Shown piece by piece: positions 355 through 25,846 of a stretch of 64,000 nucleotides of DNA; within the stretch, counting starts at the first letter, position 1; each line of letters starts with the position of its first letter. Under the pieces are notes generated by a model, which was not told the DNA's origin, searched no databases, and saw only the letters and a list, made by a program, of their open reading frames with translations. Position numbers and translations under genes: made by a program. The DNA lies in the NCBI GenBank assembly GCA_026413805.1, contig JAOAKE010000002.1, positions 3,599 to 67,598 on the forward strand. Direction: 5' to 3'. This DNA is from Candidatus Micrarchaeota archaeon (lineage in GTDB: Archaea > Micrarchaeota > Micrarchaeia > Anstonellales > Anstonellaceae).

Positions 355-2703
355 ATGGAAAATGAAGAAACTGCCCCCGAGGGGCAGGAAAAACAGGAAT
401 TGGGAAAGAACATCTACGATTACATTACTGAAAAGGAGCTTCGCCAGTACAGGAGCATGAATGCAGAGGAGCTTTTAGCCAAGCGAAGGTACTTTGAAGA
501 GGAGATTGAAAGGCTAGTGAAAGCAAGGAAAGAAGAACCAAGATATTACCTTGACCGAGATCGCGCCCGCCTTATTGAAGATTTTAAGAATAAGATGCAG
601 ATAATTGATTCCCTGCTTGCCCAGGCAGAAGCAGCCGATGCCGAGGAGCTTGACGCTGCTATTGTAGAAACCATCCAGAAGCACATTTCTTTGATTACCG
701 ATAAAATGAAGCAGAATGCAAAGGAGATAGAAGCCTTGCAGCTCGAGATAGAGCAGGCTCCCCAAGCAGCTAAAATAAAAGAGCAAGAGGAGGCCATAAA
801 GAAAAGGCAGAATAGGCTTGAAGCATGGGAAAAGGGATGGAAAGCAAAGCGGGAAGCTCTGAACAATGAGAAGGAAGAGCTCGAGGCTAAGCTTGAGAAG
901 CACCTTGCGTTCATCGCAAGGCTTGGCAAAAGAAAAATGCTTAGCGAGGATGAACTAATCGTAAAGCAAAATATTGAGGAGGAAGCAGAGGAAATAAAGG
1001 TGCAAATCGCCAAAGTTACTGCCAAAATAATCAAATTTGAAAAGAAAATAGAAGAAAAAACTCTTTCTTTAAACGAAGAGATAAGCAAGCTTGAAGCAGC
1101 GTTGTCCGCAATTAAGAAAGAAATAGAGAGCGAAGTAGCCAAAAAGAAAGAAAGGCTTCTCCAGCTGGAAGCTTTGAACGAAGAGCTCAATCGCCATCTT
1201 GAAGCAAAGGTGAGATTTCTACAAAGCCACGGGGTTGAAGTTGAAGAAACAAGCAAAGATGGTGCTAAAACAAGCAAAGATGGTGCTAAATTAATCCTTC
1301 CTAAAGAAGTTCCAAAAGAAGTCGAACCTAACCAAAAGGAGCCTAAATTACTCCCTCCCAAAAGAGTCCCAGAAGAAATTACGCCTGACCAAAAGGAGCC
1401 AGGCGAAACTGTCCCGACCAATAGCGCGGACCCGACTAGGGTAATTAGCGACTATGTTGCATTGCTTCGAGCAAAGGAAAAGTGGCGAAATCGCTTTAAG
1501 GGCAATTTCATGCGCAGAATTCTCTTAGTACGGAAGGACGATGCAGTTCTTGCAAACGAAAACCAGATTCGCCAAGACTTCCGAGAGCTTGTGCGAGAGA
1601 CTCTCAATGCTTCCCCCCAAAGAAATGCTGCCCTTAAATCAATCTACGAGGACATAGGAAATAGGCTGAACCGGGGAGACAACGTCACTAGCTTAGAAAA
1701 GACACTAAGGTGGCTGCGAAAGCCGGCAGTGGCAATCGGAAGGGTTGCGATAGGTGCCGGTCTAGTCGCTCTTGGCTCACTATCAGGAGGGGCAGTAGGA
1801 GTGGCAGCGATTGCCACAGGCGGCGTGCTAGGCGGAATCGGCCGCTTTGTTGGCGTAGATGCTGCATGGGATCGCATTCGGCATGCTTGGACTGGAAGGG
1901 AAAAGAACAAGCACGGGCTGGAATACGCAGCTTCTGCCCAAGTTTTCTACAACAATGTTTCTGGAGCTAAGCTAGAAGAACGCGTAAATGCAATTGGCAC
2001 AGAAAATGTTGAAGGCACTGCAAACAATGTAGACAACGCCTTCATAAAATACGCTGAGAACACAGGAAAGAACAGGATGTGGAAGAGGCTGGCTGCATTG
2101 GCAGCTGCATTCATTCCTCCAATTGCTCTGAAATACTTAGCTGGAGGAGAGGCGCATCCACAGGCAGGCACAGGCAAGGCAATACAACCCAGTGAAACTA
2201 ACGCCTCACCCAAGCCAGCAGCAAGCGAAGTTCAGCCACAGGCAGGCACAGGCAAGGTCATCCCACCAGAAAAGGCTACTGCTCCGCCCAAGCCCGCCTC
2301 TGAAGGCTTCACTGTTCCTGACAAAGGTGGCATTTGGCATATCAGCGAGCAGATCGCACAGAAGTACATACCTGAATTCAAGCACCTCCCATCTGCCGAT
2401 AAGAATGTCGTAGTTGATGCGATCAAAGACTACATAATCCAAGAAAAGGATAGGCTGTTTGAGCCACACGAGGTTATCCCCAGGCCGATTGAAAATGGCG
2501 GGCCATGGCTGAAGAAGGGAGCCGACATGGCCTTCAACAGAGAGGATCTATTAAAAGCAATAGAGAATGGGGTGCCAAAGAGGATTCGCGATATATTAGG
2601 CACAGACCTTAAGGGAGGCATTCCAAGGCCAAAGAGCCTCAGCAGTGACATTATAGGCAAAGGACACATAAAGGCAGGAAGGGTAGCAGCCGGCAGGGTA
2701 TAA
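355..2703 (+). CDS. large coiled-coil protein (782 aa) with Gly-rich putative membrane segment and low-complexity repeats; function unknown
   Basis: The N-terminal ~300 aa are strongly E/K/L-rich heptad-like sequence. A tandem TSKDGAK repeat is present. The segment AIGRVAIGAGLVALGSLSGGAVGVAAIATGGVLGGIG looks like a glycine-zipper transmembrane helix. A duplicated PQAGTGK(A/V)I.P motif follows. No recognisable catalytic motif. Confidence 0.6.
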   Translation: MENEETAPEGQEKQELGKNIYDYITEKELRQYRSMNAEELLAKRRYFEEEIERLVKARKEEPRYYLDRDRARLIEDFKNKMQIIDSLLAQAEAADAEELDAAIVETIQKHISLITDKMKQNAKEIEALQLEIEQAPQAAKIKEQEEAIKKRQNRLEAWEKGWKAKREALNNEKEELEAKLEKHLAFIARLGKRKMLSEDELIVKQNIEEEAEEIKVQIAKVTAKIIKFEKKIEEKTLSLNEEISKLEAALSAIKKEIESEVAKKKERLLQLEALNEELNRHLEAKVRFLQSHGVEVEETSKDGAKTSKDGAKLILPKEVPKEVEPNQKEPKLLPPKRVPEEITPDQKEPGETVPTNSADPTRVISDYVALLRAKEKWRNRFKGNFMRRILLVRKDDAVLANENQIRQDFRELVRETLNASPQRNAALKSIYEDIGNRLNRGDNVTSLEKTLRWLRKPAVAIGRVAIGAGLVALGSLSGGAVGVAAIATGGVLGGIGRFVGVDAAWDRIRHAWTGREKNKHGLEYAASAQVFYNNVSGAKLEERVNAIGTENVEGTANNVDNAFIKYAENTGKNRMWKRLAALAAAFIPPIALKYLAGGEAHPQAGTGKAIQPSETNASPKPAASEVQPQAGTGKVIPPEKATAPPKPASEGFTVPDKGGIWHISEQIAQKYIPEFKHLPSADKNVVVDAIKDYIIQEKDRLFEPHEVIPRPIENGGPWLKKGADMAFNREDLLKAIENGVPKRIRDILGTDLKGGIPRPKSLSSDIIGKGHIKAGRVAAGRV

Positions 2704-2783: not shown

Positions 2784-3086
2784 TTATGGGTGCAGTGCAT
2801 TTTTCATTTTGACAACAAAAATATTTGCTTCCATCTCATCTGTGATTTTTTCAATCCACGAGTCAAGATATCTGTAAGGTGTTGGAAAATCCCTTTTTAT
2901 TTTTTCTACTTCTTCCTTGAACGCCTTTAAGATTCTTTCCTTCCCTTCAACAGTTCTTGCAGAAAAAAACTTTTTTTGGAGGCCATTGACTCTTGCCTCA
3001 ATTTGCAAGTATGTTGGCGAAATCAGCACCGCATCACAGCGTTTCCGTGCCTCTTTTGCTTTCATATCACATCCCCCGCCTTTCAT
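2784..3086 (-). CDS. hypothetical small protein (100 aa), last gene of the minus-strand cluster
   Basis: ORF overlaps the 3' end of the 1389-aa gene by 20 nt. It is charged and lysine-rich. Confidence 0.4.
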   Translation of the reverse strand: MKGGGCDMKAKEARKRCDAVLISPTYLQIEARVNGLQKKFFSARTVEGKERILKAFKEEVEKIKRDFPTPYRYLDSWIEKITDEMEANIFVVKMKNALHP

Positions 3087-6000
3087 ACATTATCCTTTCT
3101 ATCTCTTTTATTAGATTATCTGGGTCAACCTCAAACTCCATCCTTCTTTCCTCTATTGCCTTTGTGATGTAGGCCAGGGCCTCACCTGGCTTTTCAAAAC
3201 TGCATGCCTTTTTGAAGAAGCCCTCTCCGAACACACCATCTACCTTGGCCTCCAAAAGAGCATAGTCTCCGCTGAAATACGCCTCTCTAAATTCCTTCTC
3301 AGCATTCGCAGCCTTAACCATCCATATAGCTGCCTCTGAACCTATTTGGTGTTGCGGCGGTTTTCCTTCTTCAACAAAAGCCTTGACGTCCATCATCACA
3401 TCCCCTATCCACTTTGTCGGAGCATCAGCTACTGCAAGAGGGACTCCCAAGACTCGGTCAACAGTCTGGCGGCTGTCCTTGTTATAGTAAGTCCGTTCAG
3501 TTGGCATTGCGCGGATTATTTCTGCCATGGTTTCAACAAAAGGATCATTGAAGCCTATCCTTGCTTCCCCTACTACGAACTTTTTGGTCAATGGCTTCGC
3601 CCACGGGACCTCTTCGGCATCCCTGGTCCCAAGACAATCACTGACGTAATAAGAAACCTCAAAGTGGGCTGCTCGCCTCAGTATGTTTATATTATATGTG
3701 AAAGAGTGGTCGCTGCCATTTATGTATAGATTCCCATTGTTTTCAGTTACGCAGAATGGGTGGTCCCCTCTAACTTTGCGCAGGTGGGGTATAAGCTCCT
3801 TGTATTCGGCACTCTGGACATTAGTGCAAACAACAGAGTTTCTCTCAACCTGTTTCTTCAAATCATATGCAAAGAGCATTTGCGGGAGCATAATATTCTG
3901 GATATTTGAAAGGAGATGGCCCATGTCTCCAGTCGTTTTTGCATTTTTGAGAACATTCTTTAAGATAATAGAGATAAGCGCAAGGTCGCCAGTTATTCTA
4001 CTTGGAGCAAGGAGGTCGGCAGCGAGCCCTGCGTATTCTTCTCTCAGGGGCGCCATGTTCTTTTCGCTTTTCGTTATTATTGAAGAAGCTTCAAGCAAGT
4101 CTCTTTCCATCTCATCAATTTTCTTCATCTTTTCTTCGGTCTCAAATTTGTTTAGGACTTTTCTCATGTAGCTGCAGATACTTTTTATATATCCATCCAT
4201 GGCCTCTTTGATGCTGGCAGGGTCGCTTTTCCCCATTGCCTCTTCCAATTTCTGCCTGGCAGAATTCATCTCCCAAGTCATCTCCTCCGAGAAGTAGTCT
4301 TTCTGCAGCTCTACAACAGGCCGAGTCTGGAACCTTTTAGAATACTGCGCTACTGACCGCATCAGCGAGAGCCTGGCAATGAGAGCTCCATCGTGTTTTT
4401 CTTTAGTTTGGCCAACCAATTCTTTTTCAATATTCTTTTCAATTAGCTTAATCGCCTCTTTTAGCTCGAGATAGGCCAATCCCTTTGCCTTGAGCCTTTC
4501 ATAAATTGTAAAGGGCACTTCTATGGGCAGCGCCTTATTCTTAAGAAATTCTGCTGCAAATGTTGTCCCATTATCCAGGTCAAATCTCGCTATCTCTTCT
4601 ATATATGGGTAATAGTAGTCAAGGGCCGTTCGCCTTTCTGCTATTTTTTTCGCAATTGCATTAGTTATCCATTCAACTGCGATTAGCTCTGGTCTTGATG
4701 TCAATATGAGCTCGTCCAACCTTTTTCCGCCATCCACATTGCACAGCCGCAGTATCAGCTTGTTTTTAGTTGGGAAAGTGGACCAAATTTCGTTTAGAGC
4801 ATCCTCCCCAATATTCGGGTTTTCCTTAGCAATGCTCAACTCCGTCTTGGCCACTTCCATCTTCAATCTCCACCCGACATCGCGCCCAGAGCGGATAGAG
4901 CGGATTTCCATCAAGTCAGATTGGGTAAATGGGTAGCCCCCCTCAGCAAGTTTCCTTATCAGCCTTAGCAGATGTGGCTCTTTTTTTGCCGCTTCAAAAA
5001 GCTTCTTTTTTAGCCCCACATCCACCCAATCTCTAACTTCATGGCCACTAAGAGTTAGCATCCCTTCCAATTCAAAATAAGTTTTCTTGTTTCCGCCCAT
5101 CCATTCATCAAGGAGGTTTAGGAATCGTTTGCGCTTGCCAGTCAACTCCAAAAGTTCATCAGGAGTCTTTGTGGAAATTTGGGGAAGGAACAGCACTAAT
5201 TCCTCAATCGTCATCTTGCCAAGGAGGTCTACGCTTCGTAGGCACCTTGACTTTATCTCTTCAAAAGGGGTGCTAGGGAAAGCTTTCAGATACAGCTGTA
5301 CAAGTTCTTTGGCGATCATTCCCGCTATGCTATTTGAGTGCTTAGAGAGGGCAGCAACAACCCCCTCGTTCCCAAGTATGTCTAGGATTTCAATTACCCG
5401 GCCATCTTCTAGGAAAGAGAAGCAGACTTCATCCACAAGGCTAACAAGGCTTAGGTTATTTTTGTTCTTTTCAAAAACGCCCTTTGCTAGTCTTGCTATC
5501 TCTTGGTTGCGCCCCAAGGCTATCCTTTCTACTGTTTCTGCAGCATACTCCCAGTCCTCTTTGATTCTGGGCCTGCTATCAGGTGCTTCAACGATTTCAG
5601 GGCGTCTTTCTTTTATTGGTTGTGCGCTTGAAATGATCGATTCGTAACCTCTTTTTATCATTTCGCTTTTTATATGGTCTAAAACTTGCGGGGAGGACTT
5701 CTCAAGGGCGGCATAGTAAAGCTCTCTTAGGAACTTCTCTCTGCTCTCTTTTGACATTTCCTCAGCACCCTTTATCAGTTTTCCTATTTCTTCTACTAAG
5801 GCCGGTTCCTCACCTCGCTTTGAAGACTCTTCTAGCCGATTCAAGAAGAAATCAAAAAACGATTTCATCATGACTTGTGCGCCTTTTTCATCCATCGCTT
5901 TGGCGTACTTTTCCTGCGCAGGAGAAAGCCTTGGCTTTCCAGTTACTTCGCCCGGCTTGATTTTTAGGCCGGTTACTCCCTTTGAAACAATCCGAGGCAG

Positions 6001-7236
6001 GCCCAAAAGGCCCCCACTTACAAGCAGGTTAGTGACATCATCAGGGCTCAATCCATATTTTTCAGCATTCAGTGATAGGTAAGTGCCGCTTGTCCCAACC
6101 TCAATCAGGAGGAACTTGCCAGCTAATGAACTGATGCCCATGCCTGCCTTTCCAACTGCAGCAAGAGCCGCGCCGCTAGATTCGATGGCAGACATGCCAG
6201 CGGTTTGCCCTATAAAACTAAGCATTCTGCCAGCAGCTTTGACATAAGCAAAAAATGGGGCTGCCATGGTAGCCGCCATAAGAGCCCCATGGACCTTGTC
6301 CTCCCAGCTGCTCTCTTTTTTGAAAGAGTCCATTACATCCTTTCCAAAATAAAGATAGCCTGCAAGCTGGGTTGGGGGGTAGGCTAATGCAGCCACTGCA
6401 AGCAGAGTCGGAGCCGCGGTCACAAGAGGCTCTGCAGCATGATATACCTTGTCGCCGATGCCTTTGGCTTCCCTTACTTTTTTTCGATATAGGAAGCTTG
6501 AAAGCTGTTTTTGCTCAAATTGCAAATAAGCATTGTTGAATCTTTCAAGTGATTTGCGGTAATTTGCAACCTCTTCGGCAAATCTTGCGTTGCTGCTCCA
6601 CCTAATTTGTGGAAGATTGGACGGGAGGAGGGAAGCATATTCTCTTTCAAGCTGCTTATTCGTGCTGCTGATGTACTCCATCTTGCCATTTATTTTATCT
6701 TGCATGCTGTAGAGGTTGAAGAGTTTTGAATACGCAAGGTAAGTGTTGGCATCTCTCAGGACGTTAAACCTGCTTTGGCAGTCAGGCATCTTGCCAAACT
6801 GGGCTCCCCACAATATGTAAGGAGTAAAGCGGCTGAGCAAATAGCTTGCAAGGGCATTGGCCGCCTTGGCAAATTCTTCAGGATCTTTGAGCGCTTTTGA
6901 TACTCTTTCCAATCTTTTTATGGTCAGCTCAACTTCGGAATATTGCTTTTCAAATGTTGACAACTGCAAGCTGTTCAATACTGCTTTGGCGTTGGCGTAG
7001 CCCATCCTCTCAAGCAAAGCAACCTGCTCTTCTGCGCTTTTCGCCTCATTTATAAGACCTATTAGCTCCCTTTCGCATTTTTTTGCAAGAAGCAGCTTGT
7101 CCCACGCCCCCTTGAATGTAGGGTCAAATAAATGCTCTTCTCTCACTTCTCTTTCTTCAGGGGGCTCTCTTCTGCCTACAACCTTGACCTCAACCTCCTT
7201 AGAGAATGACTGGAATAAAAGCACCATGGGGTGCAC
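3067..7236 (-). CDS. giant hypothetical protein (1389 aa), no recognisable domain
   Basis: Uninterrupted 4.17-kb ORF. There is an internal hydrophobic/Ala-Gly-rich stretch (PFFAYVKAAGRMLSFIGQTAGMSAIESSGAALAAVGKAGMGISSLAGKF). It sits immediately downstream of the beta-helix/vWA/MoxR genes with small intergenic gaps. Confidence 0.65.
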   Translation of the reverse strand: MHPMVLLFQSFSKEVEVKVVGRREPPEEREVREEHLFDPTFKGAWDKLLLAKKCERELIGLINEAKSAEEQVALLERMGYANAKAVLNSLQLSTFEKQYSEVELTIKRLERVSKALKDPEEFAKAANALASYLLSRFTPYILWGAQFGKMPDCQSRFNVLRDANTYLAYSKLFNLYSMQDKINGKMEYISSTNKQLEREYASLLPSNLPQIRWSSNARFAEEVANYRKSLERFNNAYLQFEQKQLSSFLYRKKVREAKGIGDKVYHAAEPLVTAAPTLLAVAALAYPPTQLAGYLYFGKDVMDSFKKESSWEDKVHGALMAATMAAPFFAYVKAAGRMLSFIGQTAGMSAIESSGAALAAVGKAGMGISSLAGKFLLIEVGTSGTYLSLNAEKYGLSPDDVTNLLVSGGLLGLPRIVSKGVTGLKIKPGEVTGKPRLSPAQEKYAKAMDEKGAQVMMKSFFDFFLNRLEESSKRGEEPALVEEIGKLIKGAEEMSKESREKFLRELYYAALEKSSPQVLDHIKSEMIKRGYESIISSAQPIKERRPEIVEAPDSRPRIKEDWEYAAETVERIALGRNQEIARLAKGVFEKNKNNLSLVSLVDEVCFSFLEDGRVIEILDILGNEGVVAALSKHSNSIAGMIAKELVQLYLKAFPSTPFEEIKSRCLRSVDLLGKMTIEELVLFLPQISTKTPDELLELTGKRKRFLNLLDEWMGGNKKTYFELEGMLTLSGHEVRDWVDVGLKKKLFEAAKKEPHLLRLIRKLAEGGYPFTQSDLMEIRSIRSGRDVGWRLKMEVAKTELSIAKENPNIGEDALNEIWSTFPTKNKLILRLCNVDGGKRLDELILTSRPELIAVEWITNAIAKKIAERRTALDYYYPYIEEIARFDLDNGTTFAAEFLKNKALPIEVPFTIYERLKAKGLAYLELKEAIKLIEKNIEKELVGQTKEKHDGALIARLSLMRSVAQYSKRFQTRPVVELQKDYFSEEMTWEMNSARQKLEEAMGKSDPASIKEAMDGYIKSICSYMRKVLNKFETEEKMKKIDEMERDLLEASSIITKSEKNMAPLREEYAGLAADLLAPSRITGDLALISIILKNVLKNAKTTGDMGHLLSNIQNIMLPQMLFAYDLKKQVERNSVVCTNVQSAEYKELIPHLRKVRGDHPFCVTENNGNLYINGSDHSFTYNINILRRAAHFEVSYYVSDCLGTRDAEEVPWAKPLTKKFVVGEARIGFNDPFVETMAEIIRAMPTERTYYNKDSRQTVDRVLGVPLAVADAPTKWIGDVMMDVKAFVEEGKPPQHQIGSEAAIWMVKAANAEKEFREAYFSGDYALLEAKVDGVFGEGFFKKACSFEKPGEALAYITKAIEERRMEFEVDPDNLIKEIERIMYERRGM

Positions 7237-7318
7237 CTAATACAGATAGTTAGCCCCCGCACATTATTATTTCTTCTTCTATTTCCCTGCGCACCTAAAA
7301 GGAGCATGCCGTTTTGGC

Positions 7319-8260
7319 TTACCTAAAGATTATCTCGCCGCTTAATTTTTTATATCCAGTATAATGGCGGCTTTTCCCTCCTAAAAATATCGTTGCTCCT
7401 TGCAGTTCAAAGCCAGTGTAGTCTCGCACATCCCCAAATACGTGGATTTTGCCTCCGCTTGCGCGATAGCCCGTATAGTCCATTGCGTTTTTCAGCACAA
7501 AGATTTCCCCTCCTTTCATTTCGCACCCTACCCAGTTCCTTGCGTTCCCAACGACATTTAGCACCCCGCCCTCCATTTTTTCACCGCCGAAGTCCAGCAC
7601 GTCTCCAATGACGCTCACTTGCCCGCCAACCATCTGCGAGCCAGTGAAATTCCCACAGCTTCCTTCAACTACGAACCTTCCACAGACCATGCCCTTTGCG
7701 CTGTAGTCTCCTAAGTTGCCTTTGACCACGACATCCTTTTTGTTCCGGCATCCAAGGTAATTTATCCTCACATCAAGATGCCTCAAGCTTATTATGAACT
7801 CGTCGTCTTTGCAAGCGTTGATTAAATCCGAAAGGAATAGGCCCGCCCTATCGCTAAAATTCTTTTCGTGCTGGTATTTCCTCAGCAGCAAGACAAACTC
7901 GGCTATGTCAGCAGCTCCATAACCAGTGCGCGCTATGCTCTCGAGCAGGAGTTGGGCATGGGTTTTTGGCATGTGGTCTTTGCGTGGCACAGCCGTATAG
8001 TGGAAAGTGGAAAACAGGTCAGCAAAAAAGTCAGATGCAAATCCTTTCATCGGGGATTCAGCAGGGGCATAGTAGTCTTTCAGCTGCATTACTTTCAAGA
8101 ACGCCCTTTCCATCTCCCCTGCCTTTAAGCTATTTGTAGAAATGCCTTTGGCTTCTTCTAAGATTGGCGGCTGTGGGACAAACTTTCCAAGGAGCAAGCG
8201 CCCATTCCCATCTGGCAATAATTGCATTCTCCCATTCAAGTTCTTCTTAAATGACTGCAC
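7319..8260 (-). CDS. GXGXG-motif beta-helix protein (glutamate synthase C-terminal domain / FwdC-like fold) with unique N-terminal domain
   Basis: The C-terminal 150 aa show repeated G-x-G-x-x-G/V turns (GDYSAKGMVCGRFVVEGSCGNFTGSQMVGGQVSVIGDVLDFGGEKMEGGVLNVVGNARNWVGCEMKGGEIFV...). This is characteristic of the GXGXG right-handed beta-helix. Confidence 0.6.
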   Translation of the reverse strand: MQSFKKNLNGRMQLLPDGNGRLLLGKFVPQPPILEEAKGISTNSLKAGEMERAFLKVMQLKDYYAPAESPMKGFASDFFADLFSTFHYTAVPRKDHMPKTHAQLLLESIARTGYGAADIAEFVLLLRKYQHEKNFSDRAGLFLSDLINACKDDEFIISLRHLDVRINYLGCRNKKDVVVKGNLGDYSAKGMVCGRFVVEGSCGNFTGSQMVGGQVSVIGDVLDFGGEKMEGGVLNVVGNARNWVGCEMKGGEIFVLKNAMDYTGYRASGGKIHVFGDVRDYTGFELQGATIFLGGKSRHYTGYKKLSGEIIFR

Positions 8261-8269
8261 TTTCTCATC

Positions 8270-10174
8270 CTACCGTTTCCCCTTTGCAAGCTGCTGCCTC
8301 ATCCCTTTTTCTGCCTCTTGAATGATTATCCTTGCGCCTTCTGAAATGTCCTTGACAGAGTGATAGACCGTCAGCTTTCCAGAAGTTTCAATCCCCACCT
8401 CCCATGCAGGGGCGCTTGTTATGACCGCTACGCTGTTGGCTTCCTTTAGCTCTTCAAGCAGCTCAAGCATCTTGCGCTTGTTGTGAATTTTCATGTCGCT
8501 TACCAAATACACATGCAGGTCCTTCTCAGAGAAGTTTTCTGAAAGCCCGTTGCCTATTGCAGCCTCTTGCGCATGCTTTTTTGCAAACACCACATTCTCC
8601 AAAAGGCTTTGCAAATTGCCGCTGTTAAATGGGGCCTCTAATCGGGCCTGCATCCCAGAATTCTTTTTGAGCATCAGCCGCCCCATTGCAGTGTCTATCA
8701 AAGTGCCACCGCCCTGATACGCCAATATTGCGGCGCAGGCAAGGCGAAGGTCACAGGTGTATGGCAGGCAGTATGTTTTAGAGCCGAAGTTGATTACTCC
8801 TACTTTGCCGCCAAGCTGGATGGTCGTTTTGGCAATTCCAACCGCAATTGCAGCAAGCACAGAAGTTGACTTCTCAGGGTCGCCCATAGTCAGGCTGGCA
8901 TCCTGTATTATCAGGGAATTTTCAGGGGCATAATCAGTCTTGCGGAAAACCCTTGGGGCCTCGCCAACCATCATGGTGATGCCGGGCAAAACCTTTCCGC
9001 CAGAAGTCTCTGGCAAGGCCCTTTCCATCGGGTTGCCAAGGAAGAACCTATCAGTTCCGCTCATTCTTTTTTGCTCCGCGAGAATCTCTTTGGCGGGCTT
9101 GCCAGCCACTGCAGGATAGTTTTCAATAAGCTTCAAGTAATATTCAACAGTCTGCCTCTTTACCCAAAGCCCACCGCCAGAAGTCCCTGCGCCAAGGAAA
9201 GGGTTCATGAGCTCGCCTTTGCCTTCTCCCCCTTCAATTTCAATCCCTGCCCTTTTTGTTATCCTTTCAAGTTCCTCTTTTGAGGCAAAAGGCGCAATTT
9301 TTGAGAGGGCAATGTCAATGTCTGCGCGCCTGGCCTTTCGTATCATCTCGGTTGCGTCGCTGTCAATAGGTTCCATCTTTCCTTCATAGGCCTCTCCCAA
9401 GGAAAATCTGCCCTTGCCGATTCCAAATGACCTTGAAAAGTAACGCTCTCCCCAGAAGTTTCGCATCACCTCTAAGAACACCACTGCTGCATTTTCAAGT
9501 GCCCTAGGCTCAAACGGGGCATTCTTAAAGTCAATGCAAAATAGCCTTTCCAAGAAAGGCGCATGCTCTTTTTCAGAGGCTCCAGTTTCCCCCGCTTGCT
9601 TTTCAAGATAAGCAAGAATGAGGCTTGCAAACTCATCCTTGCTTGCTATTGCCTCTGCTTTGCGGAGGCATAAGACAAACCTGCTTCTTTGAGGGCAAAT
9701 GGCATTGTTTGCATCGTTTATCAAGCGCGAGAGCTTGCGGAAGGCAGCCTCTGCAAAGGCGATGCCATGCGAGTCCCCAGCATTCTCGTGTATATAGTGC
9801 TGCAAAAGCATGATATTTTGGTAGTTCCTTGGAAAGTTCATATACGATCCAATCACCCCTGTCATCATGCCAGCAAGCACTAAGTCAAGGTCAATGCCGC
9901 TGTTTTGGGAGAGGCGGAATGCAAATGCAGGGTCAATATATGGCCTGCCCGAGGCAAAGTCAAAGTGCATCCCACTGAAAGGAAAAGGGGGCTTTTCAAG
10001 CGCAGGATCTTTTATGACTGGAAGGTGGAATGTTGCCCTGCATTCCTCCCAAATCTTCAATGCCTTTTCCTTTGGGACAAGGGTTGCTTGCTCCAGCAGG
10101 GGTTCACTTTCAGTCTTGCCAGCCTTTCTATTTGTTTTGGAATATTGGGCAAGGAGGCTCCTGTTGCGCAGCAT
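8270..10174 (-). CDS. von Willebrand factor A (vWA) domain protein with long N-terminal region
   Basis: The C-terminal ~200 aa carry a MIDAS-like DxSxT motif (IQDASLTMGD). The hydrophobic core is typical of vWA (VLAAIAVGIA...VGVINFGSKTY...YQGGGT). It lies 11 nt downstream of the MoxR ATPase gene. Confidence 0.65.
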   Translation of the reverse strand: MLRNRSLLAQYSKTNRKAGKTESEPLLEQATLVPKEKALKIWEECRATFHLPVIKDPALEKPPFPFSGMHFDFASGRPYIDPAFAFRLSQNSGIDLDLVLAGMMTGVIGSYMNFPRNYQNIMLLQHYIHENAGDSHGIAFAEAAFRKLSRLINDANNAICPQRSRFVLCLRKAEAIASKDEFASLILAYLEKQAGETGASEKEHAPFLERLFCIDFKNAPFEPRALENAAVVFLEVMRNFWGERYFSRSFGIGKGRFSLGEAYEGKMEPIDSDATEMIRKARRADIDIALSKIAPFASKEELERITKRAGIEIEGGEGKGELMNPFLGAGTSGGGLWVKRQTVEYYLKLIENYPAVAGKPAKEILAEQKRMSGTDRFFLGNPMERALPETSGGKVLPGITMMVGEAPRVFRKTDYAPENSLIIQDASLTMGDPEKSTSVLAAIAVGIAKTTIQLGGKVGVINFGSKTYCLPYTCDLRLACAAILAYQGGGTLIDTAMGRLMLKKNSGMQARLEAPFNSGNLQSLLENVVFAKKHAQEAAIGNGLSENFSEKDLHVYLVSDMKIHNKRKMLELLEELKEANSVAVITSAPAWEVGIETSGKLTVYHSVKDISEGARIIIQEAEKGMRQQLAKGKR

Positions 10175-10185
10175 CTCATCTACCC

Positions 10186-11658
10186 TTACATTGGCAGGCT
10201 GTCCTCCATTATCTTCCCGTAGAATTCAGCTATTTTGACCTCGTTTTGAACCCTTCGTATTATTGCCTTGGCGGCAGGATGGTCGTAGTCTGACTCTCTC
10301 AGCGACTTTATCCTTTCTATGTCCCCACTTTCTTCAGCCTCCGATATTGCTGCAAGCAGCTTCTTGAGGGACGGAGCGGCCTTGTGGTAGTTTTCAAATA
10401 GCCTGTCTGCAAGCCTTTCTGCAAGATAAATGGGTAATGCATCTTTTCTCGCGTCGTTAATGTGCTTTTGCTTGAATTCCTCGGAAAATTCCATCTTATG
10501 CGCGAGGGCGTGCGGCAAAATATTGCGGATGTCCTTTGTATCTACATGGTCTCTGCCAGCAAGCCACGCCAGGCCTTTTGCATAGAAAACAACGTCATGA
10601 GAGCGGACGCTGAAGTTGTCCTTTACAAGAATGCCAACGTAGTTTCGGTCATGGGCGTCAGTGCTTATCCCATCCTCTGCCCTTTTCACCCCATATTTTT
10701 CAGACCAGTTTATTTCAGCCTCAAGGGCAGATATTATCAGCTGCGGGTCGTTTATTGCAATCTTCCCGTTATTCCCTTCTTTTACATATGCAAGGGGGAT
10801 GGCCTCGATTTCCCTAACAGCTTCTCTTCGCTCATCATCAGTCAGGGGCTCTACTGATTTTAGCAGGTTTGCCCTGTCGGAAATAAATCGCTTGAACTCC
10901 CCTACTGGGTCCTGCCTTGAATCATCAACCAATATCTGAAGCGCCTTTTCTGAAATTTGTGGATTGGAAAGGCGCATTGCAACAAGCTTCTCAGCGTTTT
11001 CGTAGCTCAAGCAGGCGATTGAGTTGTCCATTCCCGAGTATTTGGCTTCAAGCACAAGGGAGAAGCGGTCTTTCAGCTCCCTGGTCAGGGCAAGGGACCC
11101 ATCTTCCCCAAAATTCGCAGTTGCATTAGTCGGCCTGTTTCCAATGTGTTTGCTATAGAATGAGTATTCAGCCACTCCATACTCTATCATCTTGTAAAAG
11201 AGCACTTGGTCTTCTTTTGGCAGCTGTGCTATTTCATCTATGTTCAGCACAGGCACTGCGATTGCGCCTCCCCACACTACCCTCTCCTTCCCATCTTTGT
11301 TCATGCTGCCAAAGTGCAGCCTTGCAAACATTGTCTCTGGCCGCTGGTGGGGATGCCCATTAATCATGGTCGCTTCAAAAATCTCTATCGGTATCCCGGT
11401 GTATAGCGAAGAAAAAACGAGCATCTCACGGGTTTTCCCAGTTCCCCTTCCGCCAACAGAGATTATCGCATCCCCCCTTAGGAAGCTCAGGGCTCTAAGA
11501 GAGGAGTTTAGCGGAAGCGGGATTTTTTCATCAATCTTGTCAGTCAGCGGCTCTGCGGGATGCAGGGCCATGCCATGCACTATCTTTCGGATTACCTTCT
11601 CCCTTACCTTGCTATTTTGTGTATTTTGTGTTTGCTGTGGCTTTTCGGCGCATTGCAT
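10186..11658 (-). CDS. MoxR-family AAA+ ATPase (CbbQ/NorQ/GvpN-like)
   Basis: Walker A GGRGTGKT, Walker B-like VLNIDEI and an arginine-rich sensor region are present. The layout is the classic MoxR-vWA gene pair. Confidence 0.7.
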   Translation of the reverse strand: MQCAEKPQQTQNTQNSKVREKVIRKIVHGMALHPAEPLTDKIDEKIPLPLNSSLRALSFLRGDAIISVGGRGTGKTREMLVFSSLYTGIPIEIFEATMINGHPHQRPETMFARLHFGSMNKDGKERVVWGGAIAVPVLNIDEIAQLPKEDQVLFYKMIEYGVAEYSFYSKHIGNRPTNATANFGEDGSLALTRELKDRFSLVLEAKYSGMDNSIACLSYENAEKLVAMRLSNPQISEKALQILVDDSRQDPVGEFKRFISDRANLLKSVEPLTDDERREAVREIEAIPLAYVKEGNNGKIAINDPQLIISALEAEINWSEKYGVKRAEDGISTDAHDRNYVGILVKDNFSVRSHDVVFYAKGLAWLAGRDHVDTKDIRNILPHALAHKMEFSEEFKQKHINDARKDALPIYLAERLADRLFENYHKAAPSLKKLLAAISEAEESGDIERIKSLRESDYDHPAAKAIIRRVQNEVKIAEFYGKIMEDSLPM

Positions 11659-11717
11659 ACGACCTATCCCCCACCTTAGTTTTCACTAAGCGCTAATCAT
11701 CTTGCGCCCCTTGCAGC

Positions 11718-12437
11718 TTACTCTTTCTCTTGCCCTTTTCCTTCTGATGGCTGTTTTCCAAGGACTGCATTGACAGCGTGCTTTACTTCAAGGACTGCCC
11801 ACTTAACCGCGGCATTTCCAAAGGCAGCCACGCTTGCAAGTGATGCCCCTACTGCCAAGGGAGCTGCGGGCGAGCCCGAAACAATGGTCGCTACTGCTGC
11901 TGTGCCAGTGGCAACCACCGCGGCCCCGGACAGGGGCAGCACCTTCTTTTTCATAGAGCCTATGGCATTCCTGCTTTCATCGTTTAGTTTCCCCACAACA
12001 GCGGCGATGGGCGCAGCTTCAAATTTTTCTCCCAAGACGTCCTTTGCCATCCAAACCGCGTCTGATGCTTTCAGCAAATTATCTGTTTTTTTAAGCGGGC
12101 CCGAACCCCCTGCCCTGTTAACGACAAAATCGGCGCTTTCAATGAGTGCCAGTCCAAACTCCTTGCGCACCCTTTCAAACCTCTCCATTTCGTGGCGCAT
12201 CATCTTGTTTTGCTCATGCCCTTGCGAGGCAGGGAGCCCACCCATCACCATAAGGGATACGTCCCTCTCTTTTTTGTATTTAGCCCATTTTATAGCCACG
12301 TCTTTTTCCATCTGTGCTGGAAGATTCAGGCTGGCTAAAAACCTCTTCATCTCCTTGTCCTTCATCATTGCTGGATTTGGCTTGGCATTTGCTAACCTCA
12401 TATTATCTAACCTCCCTGGTGCCTTTTTTCTTTTCAT
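11718..12437 (-). CDS. hypothetical protein with Ala/Gly-rich C-terminal segment, first gene of the minus-strand cluster
   Basis: 239-aa ORF 59 nt upstream of the MoxR gene. The C-terminus LSGAAVVATGTAAVATIVSGSPAAPLAVGASLASVAAFG is a possible membrane or fibrous segment. Confidence 0.45.
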   Translation of the reverse strand: MKRKKAPGRLDNMRLANAKPNPAMMKDKEMKRFLASLNLPAQMEKDVAIKWAKYKKERDVSLMVMGGLPASQGHEQNKMMRHEMERFERVRKEFGLALIESADFVVNRAGGSGPLKKTDNLLKASDAVWMAKDVLGEKFEAAPIAAVVGKLNDESRNAIGSMKKKVLPLSGAAVVATGTAAVATIVSGSPAAPLAVGASLASVAAFGNAAVKWAVLEVKHAVNAVLGKQPSEGKGQEKE

Positions 12438-12513
12438 GCGGCTGTTTATTCCCGAGTAGAAATGCTTTTAAAACAAACGCGAGTCGCAGCTATGCTTTGG
12501 CAGGTTGGGCACA

Positions 12514-12528
12514 ATCTTTTATAAACTT
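12514..12528 (+). promoter_or_regulatory. TATA box (TTTTATAAA) of the rpoH-rpoB-rpoA operon in a divergent intergenic region
   Basis: AT-rich box about 45 nt upstream of the rpoH start. The intergenic region is shared with the oppositely oriented cluster. Confidence 0.3.
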
Positions 12529-12569
12529 TTTCTTGCTAATAACCCCCTACTGTCCCGATTAAGTTAGGT

Positions 12570-12800
12570 GTGGCTTTGCCCGAGCGTCAACCCCCATCAC
12601 ATGAATTGATACCTCAGCATAGGCTATTGAAAAAAGAAGAAGCCGAGAAAGTTTTGGCAGAGTTTAAAGTTTCAGCCCTGCAGATTCCAAAAATAAAGGC
12701 AAAAGACGCGGCTCTTATAGGCACCGGGGCAAAGGCGGGGCAGATAGTTGAGATTACAAGAAGCGATGGCTCGCGAAACTACAGGCTAGTAGTTGATTAG
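12570..12800 (+). CDS. rpoH: DNA-directed RNA polymerase subunit H (Rpb5 homolog)
   Basis: HELIPQHRLL..EEAEKVL...LPKIKAKD.ALIGTGAKAGQIVEITR.S...NYRLVV matches the RpoH family. It likely uses a GTG start. Confidence 0.85.
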   Translation: MALPERQPPSHELIPQHRLLKKEEAEKVLAEFKVSALQIPKIKAKDAALIGTGAKAGQIVEITRSDGSRNYRLVVD

Positions 12801-12808
12801 CCCAGCCC

Positions 12809-14302
12809 TTGCAAGGAAGTGATGTTTCAATGCGCGGAGAGCTCCTCACAGCATATTTCAAGGAAAACAGCCTGGTAAAGCAGCACCTCGACTCTTACAA
12901 CAAGTTCGTAGAACACGGCTTGCAAAGCATAGTAAATAGGGTGGGCGTGATCCAGCCATCGGTTGAGGGCTTTGAGCTGCGATTCGGGCAGATACGGCTT
13001 GAAAAGCCAAAGATAATAGAGGCTGACGGCTCGCAGCGGCCGATTTACCCCTCTGAGGCAAGGCTTCGCAACCTCACTTATGCTGCCCCTATTTTTCTTG
13101 AAATAATCCCTGTTTTTAACGGAGTTGAAAAGACAATCTTTTCAGAAGTCTTCATAGGCGAGCTTCCAGTAATGGTCAAGTCCAAGCTGTGCTACCTTGA
13201 CAACATGAGCGAAGAGGAGCTAATTGAGGCAGGCGAAGACCCCGCAGACCCTGGCGGCTATTTTATAATAAATGGCTCTGAGCGAGTCCTAACTTCAATA
13301 GAAGACCTTGCCCCAAACAGGATAATGTGCACGCGCGAAAAAGAAAACATGCTCGTCACTGCCAAGGTATTCTCCACACGCTTTGGGTTTCGCGCGAGGT
13401 GCGTTGTGGAGCGAACCAATGAAGGCTTCATGAGGGTGGTTTTCCCGGCTTCTCCAAAGGACCTGCCCCTGACAACAACCCTCCGCGCCTTGGGGCTTGA
13501 AAAGAAAGAGCAAATCCTCTCTGCCTTTTCACAAGAGAAGCACATACGAAATGACATTTTGCTCAATCTTGAGCTGGACACCACCAACAACAAGGAAAGC
13601 GCAATGGAATTCCTGGGCAAAAAGGCCGCCCCTGGCCAGGCGCAGGATTACCGCGAAAAGCGGGCTGAAATTCTTCTTGACACCTACCTTCTTCCACACA
13701 TAGGCACCACCCCTGAGGACAGGCTCAAAAAGGCGCATTACCTTTGCAAAATGGCAGAGCACGCAATAAGGGTGGCACACAGGGAGATACCCCAAGATGA
13801 CAAGGACCACTATGCAAACAAGAGAATCAAGCTGGCAGGGGACTTAATGGAAGACCTTTTCCGCTATGCCTTCCAGTTTTTGGTGAAAGACGTTGCATAC
13901 CAAGCAGGGAGGGCAGATGCCCGCGGAAGGCACTTGGCAGTGCAGACTCTTGTCCGCCCAGACGCGCTTTCCGACAGGATACGCTACTCAATGGCAACAG
14001 GAAACTGGATAGCCGGGCAGACAGGCGTTTCGCAGCTTCTTGACCGAACCAGCTTCCTTTCTTCTACCTCGCATCTTCGCCGCATCATTTCTCCCCTTTC
14101 AAGAAAGCACCCGCACTTCAAGGCACGCGACCTGCATGGCACTCACTGGGGGAAGCTCTGCCCAAATGAGTCGCCCGAAGGGCCATCGTGCGCCCTTGTA
14201 AAGAACATGTCGCTGCTTTGCGAGATTTCCATTGGCGAAGACGAACGCACCATAGAAGAGATGGTCAACAAGCTTGGGGTAAAGATGAGCCCAATAAGGT
14301 AA
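12809..14302 (+). CDS. rpoB2: RNA polymerase subunit B'' (N-terminal half of split RpoB)
   Basis: The N-terminal conserved RpoB regions and its position between rpoH and rpoB' support the call. The stop lies 6 nt before the rpoB' ATG. Confidence 0.9.
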   Translation: MQGSDVSMRGELLTAYFKENSLVKQHLDSYNKFVEHGLQSIVNRVGVIQPSVEGFELRFGQIRLEKPKIIEADGSQRPIYPSEARLRNLTYAAPIFLEIIPVFNGVEKTIFSEVFIGELPVMVKSKLCYLDNMSEEELIEAGEDPADPGGYFIINGSERVLTSIEDLAPNRIMCTREKENMLVTAKVFSTRFGFRARCVVERTNEGFMRVVFPASPKDLPLTTTLRALGLEKKEQILSAFSQEKHIRNDILLNLELDTTNNKESAMEFLGKKAAPGQAQDYREKRAEILLDTYLLPHIGTTPEDRLKKAHYLCKMAEHAIRVAHREIPQDDKDHYANKRIKLAGDLMEDLFRYAFQFLVKDVAYQAGRADARGRHLAVQTLVRPDALSDRIRYSMATGNWIAGQTGVSQLLDRTSFLSSTSHLRRIISPLSRKHPHFKARDLHGTHWGKLCPNESPEGPSCALVKNMSLLCEISIGEDERTIEEMVNKLGVKMSPIR

Positions 14303-14307
14303 TTCTT

Positions 14308-16182
14308 ATGCGCCGCAAAATAAAGAGAAAGAAAAAGAAGAAAATTTCACATCTTGGCGAGGCCATTTCATTTGCCCACACCAGTGTCTATGTCAATGGC
14401 AGGCTGGTTGGCTACCATGAAAATGGCGAAGTCCTTCTCGCCGAGCTTAAAAACAGGCGCAGGCAAGGGGCAATCTCGCAGCAAGTTAATTTCCACTACA
14501 GAAAAAGCACAGATGAGCTTTTCATCAACACAGACTCAGGCAGGGCAAGGCGCCCCTACATAGTAGTAGAAAATGGGCAGTCTCGCCTCACCCCTGCCCT
14601 CCTTGAGCAGCTCAAAAGAGGCGAAATATCCTGGAGCAGCCTAATCAAGCTCGGGGTAATTGAGTACCTGGACGCAGAAGAGGAGGAGGGAGCCTATGTC
14701 GCACTTCGCGAGGAAGACCTCACGCCAGAGCACACCCACCTTGAGCTTGACCCCGTCTCAATCTTCGGAGTCACTGTATCCATCCTTCCTTACCCAGAAT
14801 ACAACTCTTCTCCGAGGATTACCATGGCATGCGCCATGGCAAAGCAATCGCTTGGCACCTACCTTGTAAATTTCAACATGCGCAACGACTCGCGCGCCCA
14901 CATACTTTACTACCCCCAGCAGCCCCTTGTCCAGACACAGCCCTATCGCCTGCTTGGCTTTGCAGAGAGGGCAGCAGGCCAAAACTTTGTGGTGGCAATT
15001 ACCTCTTCTTACGGATACAATATCGGCGATGCAGTAGTAATGAACAAAAATGCAATTGACCGAGGGCTTGGCAGGAGCGTTTTTTACAAGTCTTATGAAA
15101 CAGAGGAGAGGCGCTATCCAGGCGGGCAGCGGGACACATTTGAAATACCGCCTCCAACTACTACCGGCTACCGAGAAGAAAGAGTATACCGCTTTTTGGG
15201 GGAAGATGGCATAATCTCCCCAGAATGCGAGGTGCAGGGCAAGGATGTGCTTGTTGGAAAGACCTCTCCGCCTCGCTTCTTGGAGGAAATAACAGTGTTC
15301 GGGGTTATTGAGGAAAAGAAGCGCGAGTCTTCCCTGGTATTAAAGTCAGGGGAAGAGGGCGTGGTAGATTCGGTAATGCTTACTGACTCTCTTGCAGGCA
15401 CCAAGCTGGTAAAAGTGCGCGTGCGCTCAATAAAGATACCTGAAGTTGGCGACAAGTTCGCATCTCGGCACGGCCAAAAAGGAGTCATCGGGCTGCTTCG
15501 CCCGCAGGAGGACATGCCATTTACTGCAGACGGCATAGTGCCTGACTTAATAATTAACCCACATGCAATTCCCTCCCGTATGACAATTGGGCACCTTCTT
15601 GAAATGCTGGGCGGCAAGGCAGCCTGCTTTAAGGGCAATTTTGTAGACGCCACGTCCTTCACAGGAGACAGGGAAGAAGAAATCCGCAAGATAATGAAGG
15701 AGTATGGGCTGGACGAATATGGCGAAGAGGTGCTCTATGATGGCATCACAGGAAAGCCCTGCAAGGCAAAAATCTTCATAGGAGTGATATATTACCAAAA
15801 GCTTCACCATCTTGTTTCAAACAAGATGCACGTGCGCTCGCGAGGGCCGGTCCAGCTGCTCACCCACCAGCCAACCGAAGGGCGCTCGCGGGAGGGCGGC
15901 TTGAGGTTCGGGGAAATGGAGCGCGACTGCCTCATCGGTTATGGCGCCTCCATGCTGCTCAAAGAGAGGCTGCTTGACGAGTCTGACAAAACTACCCTGC
16001 TAGTCTGTGAAAAATGCGGCTCAATCGGGTACCATGATTTTGTCAAGAATCGCGACCGCTGCCCCCTCTGTGACGATTCAAGGCTGGAGCCAATAGAAAT
16101 GAGCTATGCCTTCAAGCTCCTGCTTGACGAGATAGAGTCGCTTGGGATTTTCCCGCGGCTCATATTGAGGGATAAAGCATAG
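14308..16182 (+). CDS. rpoB1: RNA polymerase subunit B' (C-terminal half of split RpoB)
   Basis: Conserved RpoB C-terminal regions are present, including the Zn-ribbon CEKCGSIGYHDFVKNRDRCPLCDDS. The true start is the ATG at 14308. The listed ORF from 14188 is an upstream in-frame extension overlapping rpoB''. Confidence 0.9.
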   Translation: MRRKIKRKKKKKISHLGEAISFAHTSVYVNGRLVGYHENGEVLLAELKNRRRQGAISQQVNFHYRKSTDELFINTDSGRARRPYIVVENGQSRLTPALLEQLKRGEISWSSLIKLGVIEYLDAEEEEGAYVALREEDLTPEHTHLELDPVSIFGVTVSILPYPEYNSSPRITMACAMAKQSLGTYLVNFNMRNDSRAHILYYPQQPLVQTQPYRLLGFAERAAGQNFVVAITSSYGYNIGDAVVMNKNAIDRGLGRSVFYKSYETEERRYPGGQRDTFEIPPPTTTGYREERVYRFLGEDGIISPECEVQGKDVLVGKTSPPRFLEEITVFGVIEEKKRESSLVLKSGEEGVVDSVMLTDSLAGTKLVKVRVRSIKIPEVGDKFASRHGQKGVIGLLRPQEDMPFTADGIVPDLIINPHAIPSRMTIGHLLEMLGGKAACFKGNFVDATSFTGDREEEIRKIMKEYGLDEYGEEVLYDGITGKPCKAKIFIGVIYYQKLHHLVSNKMHVRSRGPVQLLTHQPTEGRSREGGLRFGEMERDCLIGYGASMLLKERLLDESDKTTLLVCEKCGSIGYHDFVKNRDRCPLCDDSRLEPIEMSYAFKLLLDEIESLGIFPRLILRDKA

Positions 16183-25737: not shown

Positions 25738-25846
25738 TAAAAGACCGACTAATAATAAGCATACAAACTTATTTAAACTATAACTGGAAGAAATTTAATT
25801 TGTGCTGTTGGCAGCACAAATAGGAGAAATATACGGGGTTGGTGCT

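Follow-up and report, generated by a model that had tools for sequence, protein, structure and literature searches.

The region analysed here is a stretch of 64,000 nucleotides (hereafter the window) from contig JAOAKE010000002.1 of a Candidatus Micrarchaeota archaeon. It is an archaeal housekeeping region with a split rpoB and rpoA', EF-2, SecY and EF-1alpha, and a scan of it returned no tRNAs and no Rfam matches. On its minus strand lies the gene of a very large protein, which is the subject of this work and to which we will refer simply as the large protein. Its open reading frame (ORF) extends without interruption over 3067..7236 and counts 1389 codons from a GTG at 7236, just as an initial annotation of the sequence had described it. 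It is also the longest ORF in the window, as stated there, with the runner-up at 987 amino acids (aa). The NCBI record P0001 (‘MAG: hypothetical protein N3G22_00580, Candidatus Micrarchaeota archaeon’, on a 68.8-kb contig) is 100% identical and starts at an ATG three codons after the GTG, giving 1386 aa, and we consider this ATG at 7227 the probable translation start. A GGTG sits 6 nt ahead of it and an A/T-rich element, ATAATAAT, 36-43 nt ahead. Both are found within the 82-nt gap that separates the large gene from the preceding beta-helix gene, and they could possibly be a ribosome-binding site and a promoter of its own. The GC content at third codon positions (GC3) is 0.48 in the large gene and 0.50-0.60 in its housekeeping neighbours.

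The initial annotation had recognised no motif in the protein and had called it an orphan. The first statement agrees with our searches: the whole protein found nothing credible in Pfam, NCBIfam, PHROGs or PADLOC, four overlapping pieces of it found no credible Pfam match (E<=0.01), and there was no match among the PDB sequences. The second applies to the C-terminal two thirds but not to the N-terminal ~435 aa. An exhaustive phmmer (HMMER) search of 1.84 billion cluster representatives with aa 191-1389 as query recovered eight distant relatives of this part (P0004-P0011, E 5e-15 to 2e-4), although no known family was matched. In all eight, the best matches fall within positions ~1-270 of the query, i.e. 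aa ~190-460 of the protein, which comprise an Ala/Gly-rich hydrophobic stretch plus the helices ahead of it; P0004 was listed with two matched stretches. Pairwise BLASTP in the set of nine proteins widened the similarity in all eight relatives, from residue ~2-40 through ~410-434, at 26-32% identity to the large protein (E 1e-35 to 5e-46), with P0004 as the best match. In the following, this constant part is called the N-module and the region behind it the payload.

The extent of the family, nine clusters at 50% identity, is the one detectable with a single-sequence query. A word-indexed search of 5.8 billion proteins is too insensitive for it: the whole protein found only itself, and a 9-sequence profile only P0005. 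A GTDB locus scan gave a single match (L008, ‘Candidatus ainarchaeum sp.’ STA_33), and two metagenome locus scans gave no new locus. Two family records carry organism names (Micrarchaeota and Iainarchaeum, both DPANN), and the remaining members were judged archaeal by their neighbouring genes. We found no description of the family in the literature. By sequence, then, the N-module defines an undescribed family of modular archaeal proteins with a constant module that is predicted to be all-alpha.

To describe this module at the residue level, the nine N-modules were aligned (alignment A1). There are 28 invariant columns. In the first part these include R26, A41, K44, L72, M75-G76 (‘MG[YF]’), A123-N124, L131 and W140, followed in the middle by L157-x-D159-A160-x-x-Y163 and several Tyr. 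The Ala/Gly part contributes P267, P284, G290, Y293, L316, P324, G362, G370, G392, L401 and G406. The module closes with a family boundary motif, G-[FL]-x-[AG]-[ML]-P. The A1 profile matches the full-length large protein at 507 bits (E 3e-153, the sequence itself being part of the profile) and finds exactly one copy per locus, with no further copy in the window. It has no match among PDB sequences.

An AlphaFold2 model of the N-module on the nine-sequence alignment reached a mean predicted local distance difference test score (pLDDT) of 69 and a predicted TM-score of 0.55. The helical domain at aa ~30-250 is well predicted, with means of 10-residue blocks mostly at 80-96 and one dip to 60 near aa 201-210. 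The helices across the Ala/Gly region follow at pLDDT 56-69, and then a poorly predicted end. The model has no fold match, as Foldseek returned nothing better than E 0.6 in PDB or E 0.14 in BFVD. As a side observation, aa ~65-88 (~6985..7035, minus strand) hold an invariant L-L-x-x-M-G-[YF] with two short helices behind it, which we take to resemble the helix-MGF-loop-helix signature of UBA-like domains, without Pfam support.

The payloads of the relatives are mutually unalignable. Pfam assigned a GNAT domain in P0006, TPR in P0009 and P0016, and FHA plus PP2C in P0010 and P0020. Below threshold, a C-terminal DnaJ-like segment was seen in P0005 (E 0.004, the HPD motif being lost) and PIN/DUF4411 in P0011 (E 0.03-0.1). 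By eye, the payload of P0004 contains HELHH...WLSEG and that of P0008 a Rossmann-type G-x-G motif, and the payload of the L008 protein appears as HEAT-like repeats plus an H...C dyad; these three readings by eye found no support in Pfam, NCBIfam or PDB.

Important insight comes from three members with closely similar N-modules. Over ~400 aa, the N-modules of P0008, P0009 and the L008 protein are 66-74% identical, and this similarity ends abruptly at about residue 410-430, ~12 residues past GF-x-AMP. Two of these proteins lie in syntenic positions of two Iainarchaeum-like genomes, namely at L008 and at L012, the contig of P0008. Here the flanks are 49-70% identical overall (DUF424 65%, ACT 70%, NFACT_N 70%, downstream gene 56%) and the N-modules 74% identical over 406 aa, whereas the payloads cannot be aligned. 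At this orthologous locus pair, as the alignments have it, the C-terminus has been replaced in place. At L012 an additional ORF of 193 aa (8797..9378, plus strand) begins 27 nt past the P0008 payload and has no counterpart in syntenic L008. This ORF, which looks GNAT-like by eye (...VRAGPELRGEGVKKLLGDAV...), co-varies with the payload.

Table 1. Positions of the large gene, its parts and selected neighbours in the window.
Feature	Position	Strand	Remarks
Coding sequence of the large protein	3067..7227	minus	1386 aa from the ATG at 7227; stop codon TGA at 3067-3069
Upstream signals	7234..7270	minus	GGTG at 7234-7237, ATAATAAT at 7263-7270; read directly from the sequence
Constant N-terminal module, aa 1-~435	5923..7227	minus	only part with homologues; ends just past the boundary motif
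Helical sub-domain, aa ~30-252	6472..7140	minus	AlphaFold2; holds the invariant M-G-[YF], A-N, W and L-x-D-A-x-x-Y
Ala/Gly-rich, marginally hydrophobic helices, aa ~257-419	5971..6459	minus	composition, A1 and AlphaFold2; invariant Pro and Gly
Payload part 1, aa ~436-1157	3757..5922	minus	predicted almost all alpha-helical; without homologue, repeat or motif
Payload part 2, aa ~1158-1386	3070..3756	minus	predicted small beta-sheet, then helices (low confidence); includes the segment quoted in the initial annotation
Shared tail, aa 1291-1357 (67 aa)	3157..3357	minus	similar to the C-terminus of P0004
Small ORF	2784..3086	minus	the ATG at 3086 gives 100 aa, that at 3065 gives 93 aa; predicted helical
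AAA+, vWA-like and beta-helix genes	7319..12437	minus	same order as at L001
782-aa protein	355..2703	plus	convergent with the locus
987-aa protein	25802..28765	plus	three Big_7 Ig-like domains

In the case of the large protein, the payload has a size of ~950 aa, and apart from its 67-aa tail no part of aa ~436-1386 has a homologue among the 1.84 billion representatives. This tail aligns with residues 646-711 of P0004 at 36% identity (E 2.8e-5 in the nine-protein set, 3e-8 pairwise). The payload of P0004 itself had no match among PDB sequences. We considered whether the large protein could be a degenerate zincin homologous to P0004 throughout, and dropped this reading. Only the last 67 aa are similar, and ahead of the tail the local score of 27.0 is not significant against a shuffle mean of 26.8. 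The two candidate placements of the HELHH of P0004 fall on AHFEVS or on TMAEIIRA. A search of the 1389-aa translation for HExxH gave none, and no peptidase family profile from Pfam, NCBIfam or PDB matched the protein. Because HExxH is absent, the degenerate-zincin reading can only be a weak hypothesis. Since no catalytic motif is present, the payload is likely to be a binding scaffold, and the large protein probably acts by binding more than by catalysis.

An AlphaFold2 model of aa 444-1389 from the single sequence was helical nearly throughout, apart from three short strands at about ORF aa 1161-1184, behind which helices follow (low confidence); at a pLDDT of 45.7 it is unusable as a structure. 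Internal repeats were looked for in the payload and none were found. The initial annotation had proposed that a conserved-looking C-terminal segment (ORF aa ~1173-1216) could be an effector domain. This segment is not conserved, as no other protein matches it and the resemblance to P0004 is limited to the tail. The idea of a C-terminal effector as such gains from the position of the payload downstream of a constant module and from the GNAT, TPR and FHA plus PP2C domains in the same position in relatives.

The internal Ala/Gly-rich hydrophobic region noted earlier is well defined. Over aa ~264-422 the Ala plus Gly content is 28-30%, against 6-18% elsewhere in the protein, and four hydrophobic segments (aa 264-295, 314-342, 354-382 and 401-422) are predicted to be helical. 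As the stretch is a conserved part of the protein in A1, it is not a low-complexity accident. One explanation would be a polytopic membrane protein, in which Sec would insert the four segments as transmembrane helices and two cytoplasmic domains would be held at the membrane by them. Predicted helicity fits with this, the Gly/Ala spacing and the invariant Pro and Gly recall helix-packing motifs, and the Eisenberg <H> of 0.56 lies above the permissive threshold of 0.42, if marginally. However, the Kyte-Doolittle maximum is 1.57 in the large protein and 1.2-1.8 across the family, mostly under the usual threshold of 1.6, and conserved acidic residues and mid-segment prolines lie inside the hydrophobic segments. 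The best 19-aa window of the large protein scores +6.1 in a position-independent Hessa-type dG sum, which like the hydropathy scales is a crude, home-made measure and not a trained predictor. On the same measure the relatives range from +2.6 to +6.2, with P0011 alone under +4. Membrane proteins of the window have far lower minima (SecY -1.9, a Na+/H+ exchanger -1.7, an EMC3-like protein -2.5) and all their listed segments are under +3, whereas the soluble controls RpoA' and EF-2 have +6.5 and +8.9. Permanent membrane anchoring is therefore doubtful in our view. The checks for transmembrane helices and a signal peptide thus showed no Sec-type helix by dG, and inspection of the N-terminus no signal peptide-like sequence. 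Because the segments are marginal and their dG is like that of soluble proteins, we do not call the stretch a transmembrane domain; it would either form the tightly packed interior of a helical domain that is soluble or be an element that inserts under certain conditions.

Directly downstream of the large gene follows a small ORF. From its first ATG it overlaps the large ORF by 20 nt, and its second ATG, preceded by a G-rich stretch, lies 1 nt past the stop codon, so that it is probably translationally coupled to the large gene. Its GC content of 0.389 and GC3 of 0.366 compare with a window GC of ~0.48. No family was found at E<=1e-3 in Pfam, NCBIfam, PHROGs or PADLOC, the one weak PHROG match being phrog_4768 (E 0.0034), a family without assigned function, and no counterpart exists at loci L001-L008. 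A close downstream small ORF on the same strand is seen only in the window and at L012. None is present at L002, L003/L004, L006, L007, L008 or L013, and at L014 an ORF of 113 aa lies beyond a 185-nt gap. The small ORF may be payload-linked or recently acquired, and it is a probable candidate for a payload-specific partner of the large protein.

We then turned to the genes upstream, which had motivated a different explanation. Beyond the 82-nt gap lie, on the same strand, a 313-aa GXGXG/FwdC-like beta-helix protein and further genes for a 634-aa vWA-like protein (no Pfam match, D-x-S-x-T motif in the form D-A-S-L-T), a 490-aa AAA+ protein and a 239-aa protein with an Ala/Gly-rich C-terminal tail. 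The AAA+ protein has a Walker A (GGRGTGKT), a Walker B (NIDE) and an AAA_lid_2 (E 1.3e-6) whose lid matches PDB 6nyr. From this proximity the initial annotation had suggested that the large protein is the effector or substrate of a MoxR/vWA/beta-helix machinery. Strand, distance and the nature of the neighbours, which do resemble the expected components, speak for such a client. The homologues and their genomic context speak against it. A single homologue of the AAA+ protein was found, P0003 (40% identity), on contig L001, where AAA+, vWA-like and beta-helix genes are found in the same order (9234..14388, plus strand) at 40/38/35% identity and with similar sizes (481, 654 and 338 aa, compared with 490, 634 and 313 aa in the window). 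A 240-aa gene precedes the trio there as the 239-aa gene does here, with no detectable similarity between the two. The L001 trio adjoins the operon of an A-type ATPase and is followed by a convergent cytidylyltransferase gene, and within 10 kb there is no member of the N-module family.

Conversely, the family-member loci taken in were L002, L003 (with duplicates L004/L005/L009-L011), L006, L007, L008, L012, L013 and L014, and at none of the seven distinct ones was a homologue of the cluster found. Because the trio is kept elsewhere without the large gene and seven family loci lack the trio, the link is not supported, and since trio and family are not co-conserved, their adjacency is specific to this genome. 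The gap ahead of the large gene, with its separate Shine-Dalgarno-like and A/T-rich elements, also points away from the client explanation, which we regard as very unlikely. Judged from these comparisons, the large protein is not a component of the AAA+/vWA-like/beta-helix cluster, and the trio looks like an independent and undescribed MoxR-like module.

The genes around the family members are of one general type. Beside the RNA polymerase, EF-2 and SecY genes of the window, the neighbours comprise exosome Csl4, RpoL and a class-I tRNA synthetase; at L003, NAC, a J-domain protein, HAD, M24 (Met-aminopeptidase-like) and TopoVI; ABCE1 and two FtsZ genes; an A-ATPase operon and L15e; NFACT and CDC48; or aS21, EF-1beta and SAM synthetase. 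This context bears on a further explanation, namely that the large protein is what remains of a virus or mobile element and was once, for instance, a tape-measure-like or DNA-transfer protein. Its gross architecture (long, helical, with an internal hydrophobic Gly/Ala stretch and, in this reading, an enzymatic domain at the C-terminus) is like that of tape-measure proteins. These are also among the weak, non-significant matches to the viral library of Foldseek (best E 0.14, TM 0.14), and its GC3 is slightly under that of the neighbours. Yet there was no PHROG match, tblastn was negative in 50,697 phage and 72,556 plasmid records, and viral or integrase genes were seen at none of the loci, where core housekeeping genes are the neighbours and synteny is kept between genomes. 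A viral or mobile origin is thus hardly credible.

Some further observations concern the neighbouring genes themselves. The 782-aa protein (Table 1) starts with a long coiled coil and has weak LmuB/JetC-type PADLOC matches that are probably compositional, two copies of a PQAGTGK[AV]I.P...A.PKPA repeat and a Gly/Ala-rich segment that is borderline transmembrane with a dG-type score of +2.5. At L003, directly upstream of P0004 (8311..9780, plus strand), a 489-aa protein begins with a helical region, continues with an Ala/Gly-rich hydrophobic stretch and ends in a J-domain with intact HPD; it has no sequence homology to the N-module. Several proteins consisting of a helical part, an Ala/Gly stretch and a C-terminal domain seem to be present in these genomes. 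The 782-aa and 239-aa neighbours, a 791-aa neighbour at L002 and the J-domain neighbour at L003 were compared to the N-module as possible paralogues, with negative outcome; for the 782-aa protein the hhalign probability was 0.03, and it is unrelated. The 987-aa protein, whose gene lies among translation genes of the window, matches Big_7 at E 1e-33 and is weakly similar to glycosyl-hydrolase-2; it is probably located at the cell surface. On a 658-kb contig (L007, 1..2571, minus strand), the catalytic subunit A of an A-type ATPase contains an intein that includes a LAGLIDADG endonuclease domain, according to its Pfam list.

Altogether, we favour the explanation that the large protein works like a polymorphic effector, with a docking or delivery module followed by a lineage-specific payload, and assign it a probability of roughly 0.4. 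This model was adopted because of the constant N-terminus, the boundary motif, the unrelated C-termini, the in-place replacement and the occasional payload-linked small genes. The absence of a signal peptide-like N-terminus, the cytoplasmic cofactor that a GNAT enzyme needs, the lack of synteny with the MoxR-like cluster and the hydrophobic helices, which are conserved yet far from Sec-type transmembrane values, were also counted in its favour. In such a protein, the constant module would dock onto a conserved partner or delivery route. The Ala/Gly helices may provide a conditional (amphitropic) membrane association, not a permanent Sec-type insertion. The payload would supply the lineage-specific activity and be replaced between lineages; here it would be the mostly helical orphan region ending in a small alpha/beta domain, with the small ORF as its probable partner.

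Several observations weigh against this model. To our knowledge, no secretion or delivery apparatus is associated with the N-module family, and no secretion genes or delivery apparatus were found in the flanks of the family loci. There are no tandem arrays or orphan cassettes, and no consistent immunity-like gene downstream of the family members. All neighbours at the family loci are housekeeping genes and not conflict islands, and several payloads (TPR, FHA plus PP2C, J-like) are regulatory domain types, not toxins. The membrane association is a proposal, and by dG the Ala/Gly helices resemble helices of soluble proteins. The payload could not be modelled usefully, and replacement in place is documented for one locus pair only in a family that, with nine clusters, is tiny.

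Part of the same evidence would be accommodated by a cell-intrinsic docking scaffold, from which nothing is exported. Here the N-module would bind a conserved internal structure of the archaeon (candidates are the inner face of the membrane and the division or translation machinery) and recruit a regulatory or enzymatic domain that is lineage-specific. Every family locus lies among housekeeping genes, there is a single copy per locus without immunity genes, a signal peptide is absent, and the FHA plus PP2C, TPR, J-like and GNAT payloads are classical intracellular regulatory modules. On the other hand, a housekeeping scaffold would not usually have its payload fully exchanged at a syntenic locus where the N-modules are still 74% identical. 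The ~950-aa payload, an orphan among the 1.84 billion representatives, also counts against this explanation. Moreover, as the genomes have a size of only ~1 Mb, the housekeeping context is weakly informative: in very small genomes it is the default expectation. We see the scaffold as the main rival of the effector model, possible if somewhat unlikely.

A more specific version of the effector model would be a platform particular to DPANN archaea. The N-module would be soluble in the producer, and at a contact site the Ala/Gly helices would enter or traverse the membrane of a partner or host cell, carrying interchangeable payloads into the host cytoplasm. Acetyltransferase, phosphatase, protease-like and RNase-like payloads, as well as binding scaffolds, would then be delivered. 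We think that this is distinctly unlikely.

As to the meaning of these results, most large DPANN proteins are unannotated. DPANN archaea depend on other cells, and we know of almost no proteins by which they act on their partners. An apparent singleton has become a definable family whose boundary motif can be tested, whose constant module is in part well predicted yet lacks a PDB match, and whose payload shows evidence of in-place replacement. At the same time, a tempting link to the neighbouring MoxR-like cluster was removed as unsupported. If the docking or delivery model is true, the N-module family would help to identify effectors of DPANN archaea and the route they take. If the module is instead a scaffold, the family would mark a conserved cellular structure in these minimal cells. 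In the case of a DPANN platform, it would be the first candidate for host-directed protein effectors and for a delivery route other than Sec in this group.

Finally, the large protein can be compared with known systems. With MoxR AAA+/vWA systems it shares the adjacency to AAA+ (AAA_lid_2), vWA-like and GXGXG beta-helix genes in one genome, but this association is not conserved and no known MoxR/vWA client domain is present. With the gluzincin-type HExxH payload of P0004, for which the peptidase assignment rests on the motif and is without Pfam, NCBIfam or PDB support, it shares the last ~70 aa and a predicted arrangement of beta-sheet and then helices upstream. It differs in the missing HExxH and in an upstream alignment that is not significant.

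Closer in architecture are effectors with hydrophobic helices. Chlamydial Inc proteins and the translocators of type III secretion systems (IpaB/YopB class) are helical, with paired central hydrophobic segments of reduced hydrophobicity and variable flanks facing the cytoplasm. In contrast to them, the large protein shows no sequence or structural match and no type III secretion system, and its segments are even less hydrophobic. The helices of type VI secretion system (T6SS) effectors (Tse6, Rhs class I/II) are thought to be soluble in the producer and to insert into the target membrane, thereby delivering the payload, and a mechanism of this kind is considered here for the Ala/Gly helices. 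Like the prePAAR/transmembrane-domain effectors of this group, which have Eag chaperones, the large protein has Gly/Ala-rich, weakly hydrophobic helices ahead of a variable domain. Unlike them, it has neither a PAAR/prePAAR motif nor T6SS or Eag genes (Pfam gave no PAAR or DUF1795 match in the protein or its neighbours), a module of ~435 aa with a large helical domain stands in front, and the organism is an archaeon.

The most instructive comparison is with the polymorphic toxins (CdiA-CT, Rhs, LXG, MafB), a framework that reportedly goes back to Zhang, Aravind and colleagues. The N-module lacks homology to a known trafficking domain and is not accompanied by a secretion system. A regular immunity gene, orphan cassettes and arrays are missing, several of the payloads have a regulatory and not a toxic character, and housekeeping genes form the surroundings. 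For these reasons we do not file the large protein as a polymorphic toxin. In common with them, however, the family has a constant N-terminus (N-modules at 26-74% identity) followed by unrelated C-termini past a short motif. This motif, G-[FL]-x-[AG]-[ML]-P, is comparable in role to their VENN or DPxGL, and the replacement of the C-terminus in place and the occasional small downstream genes linked to the payload are likewise shared.

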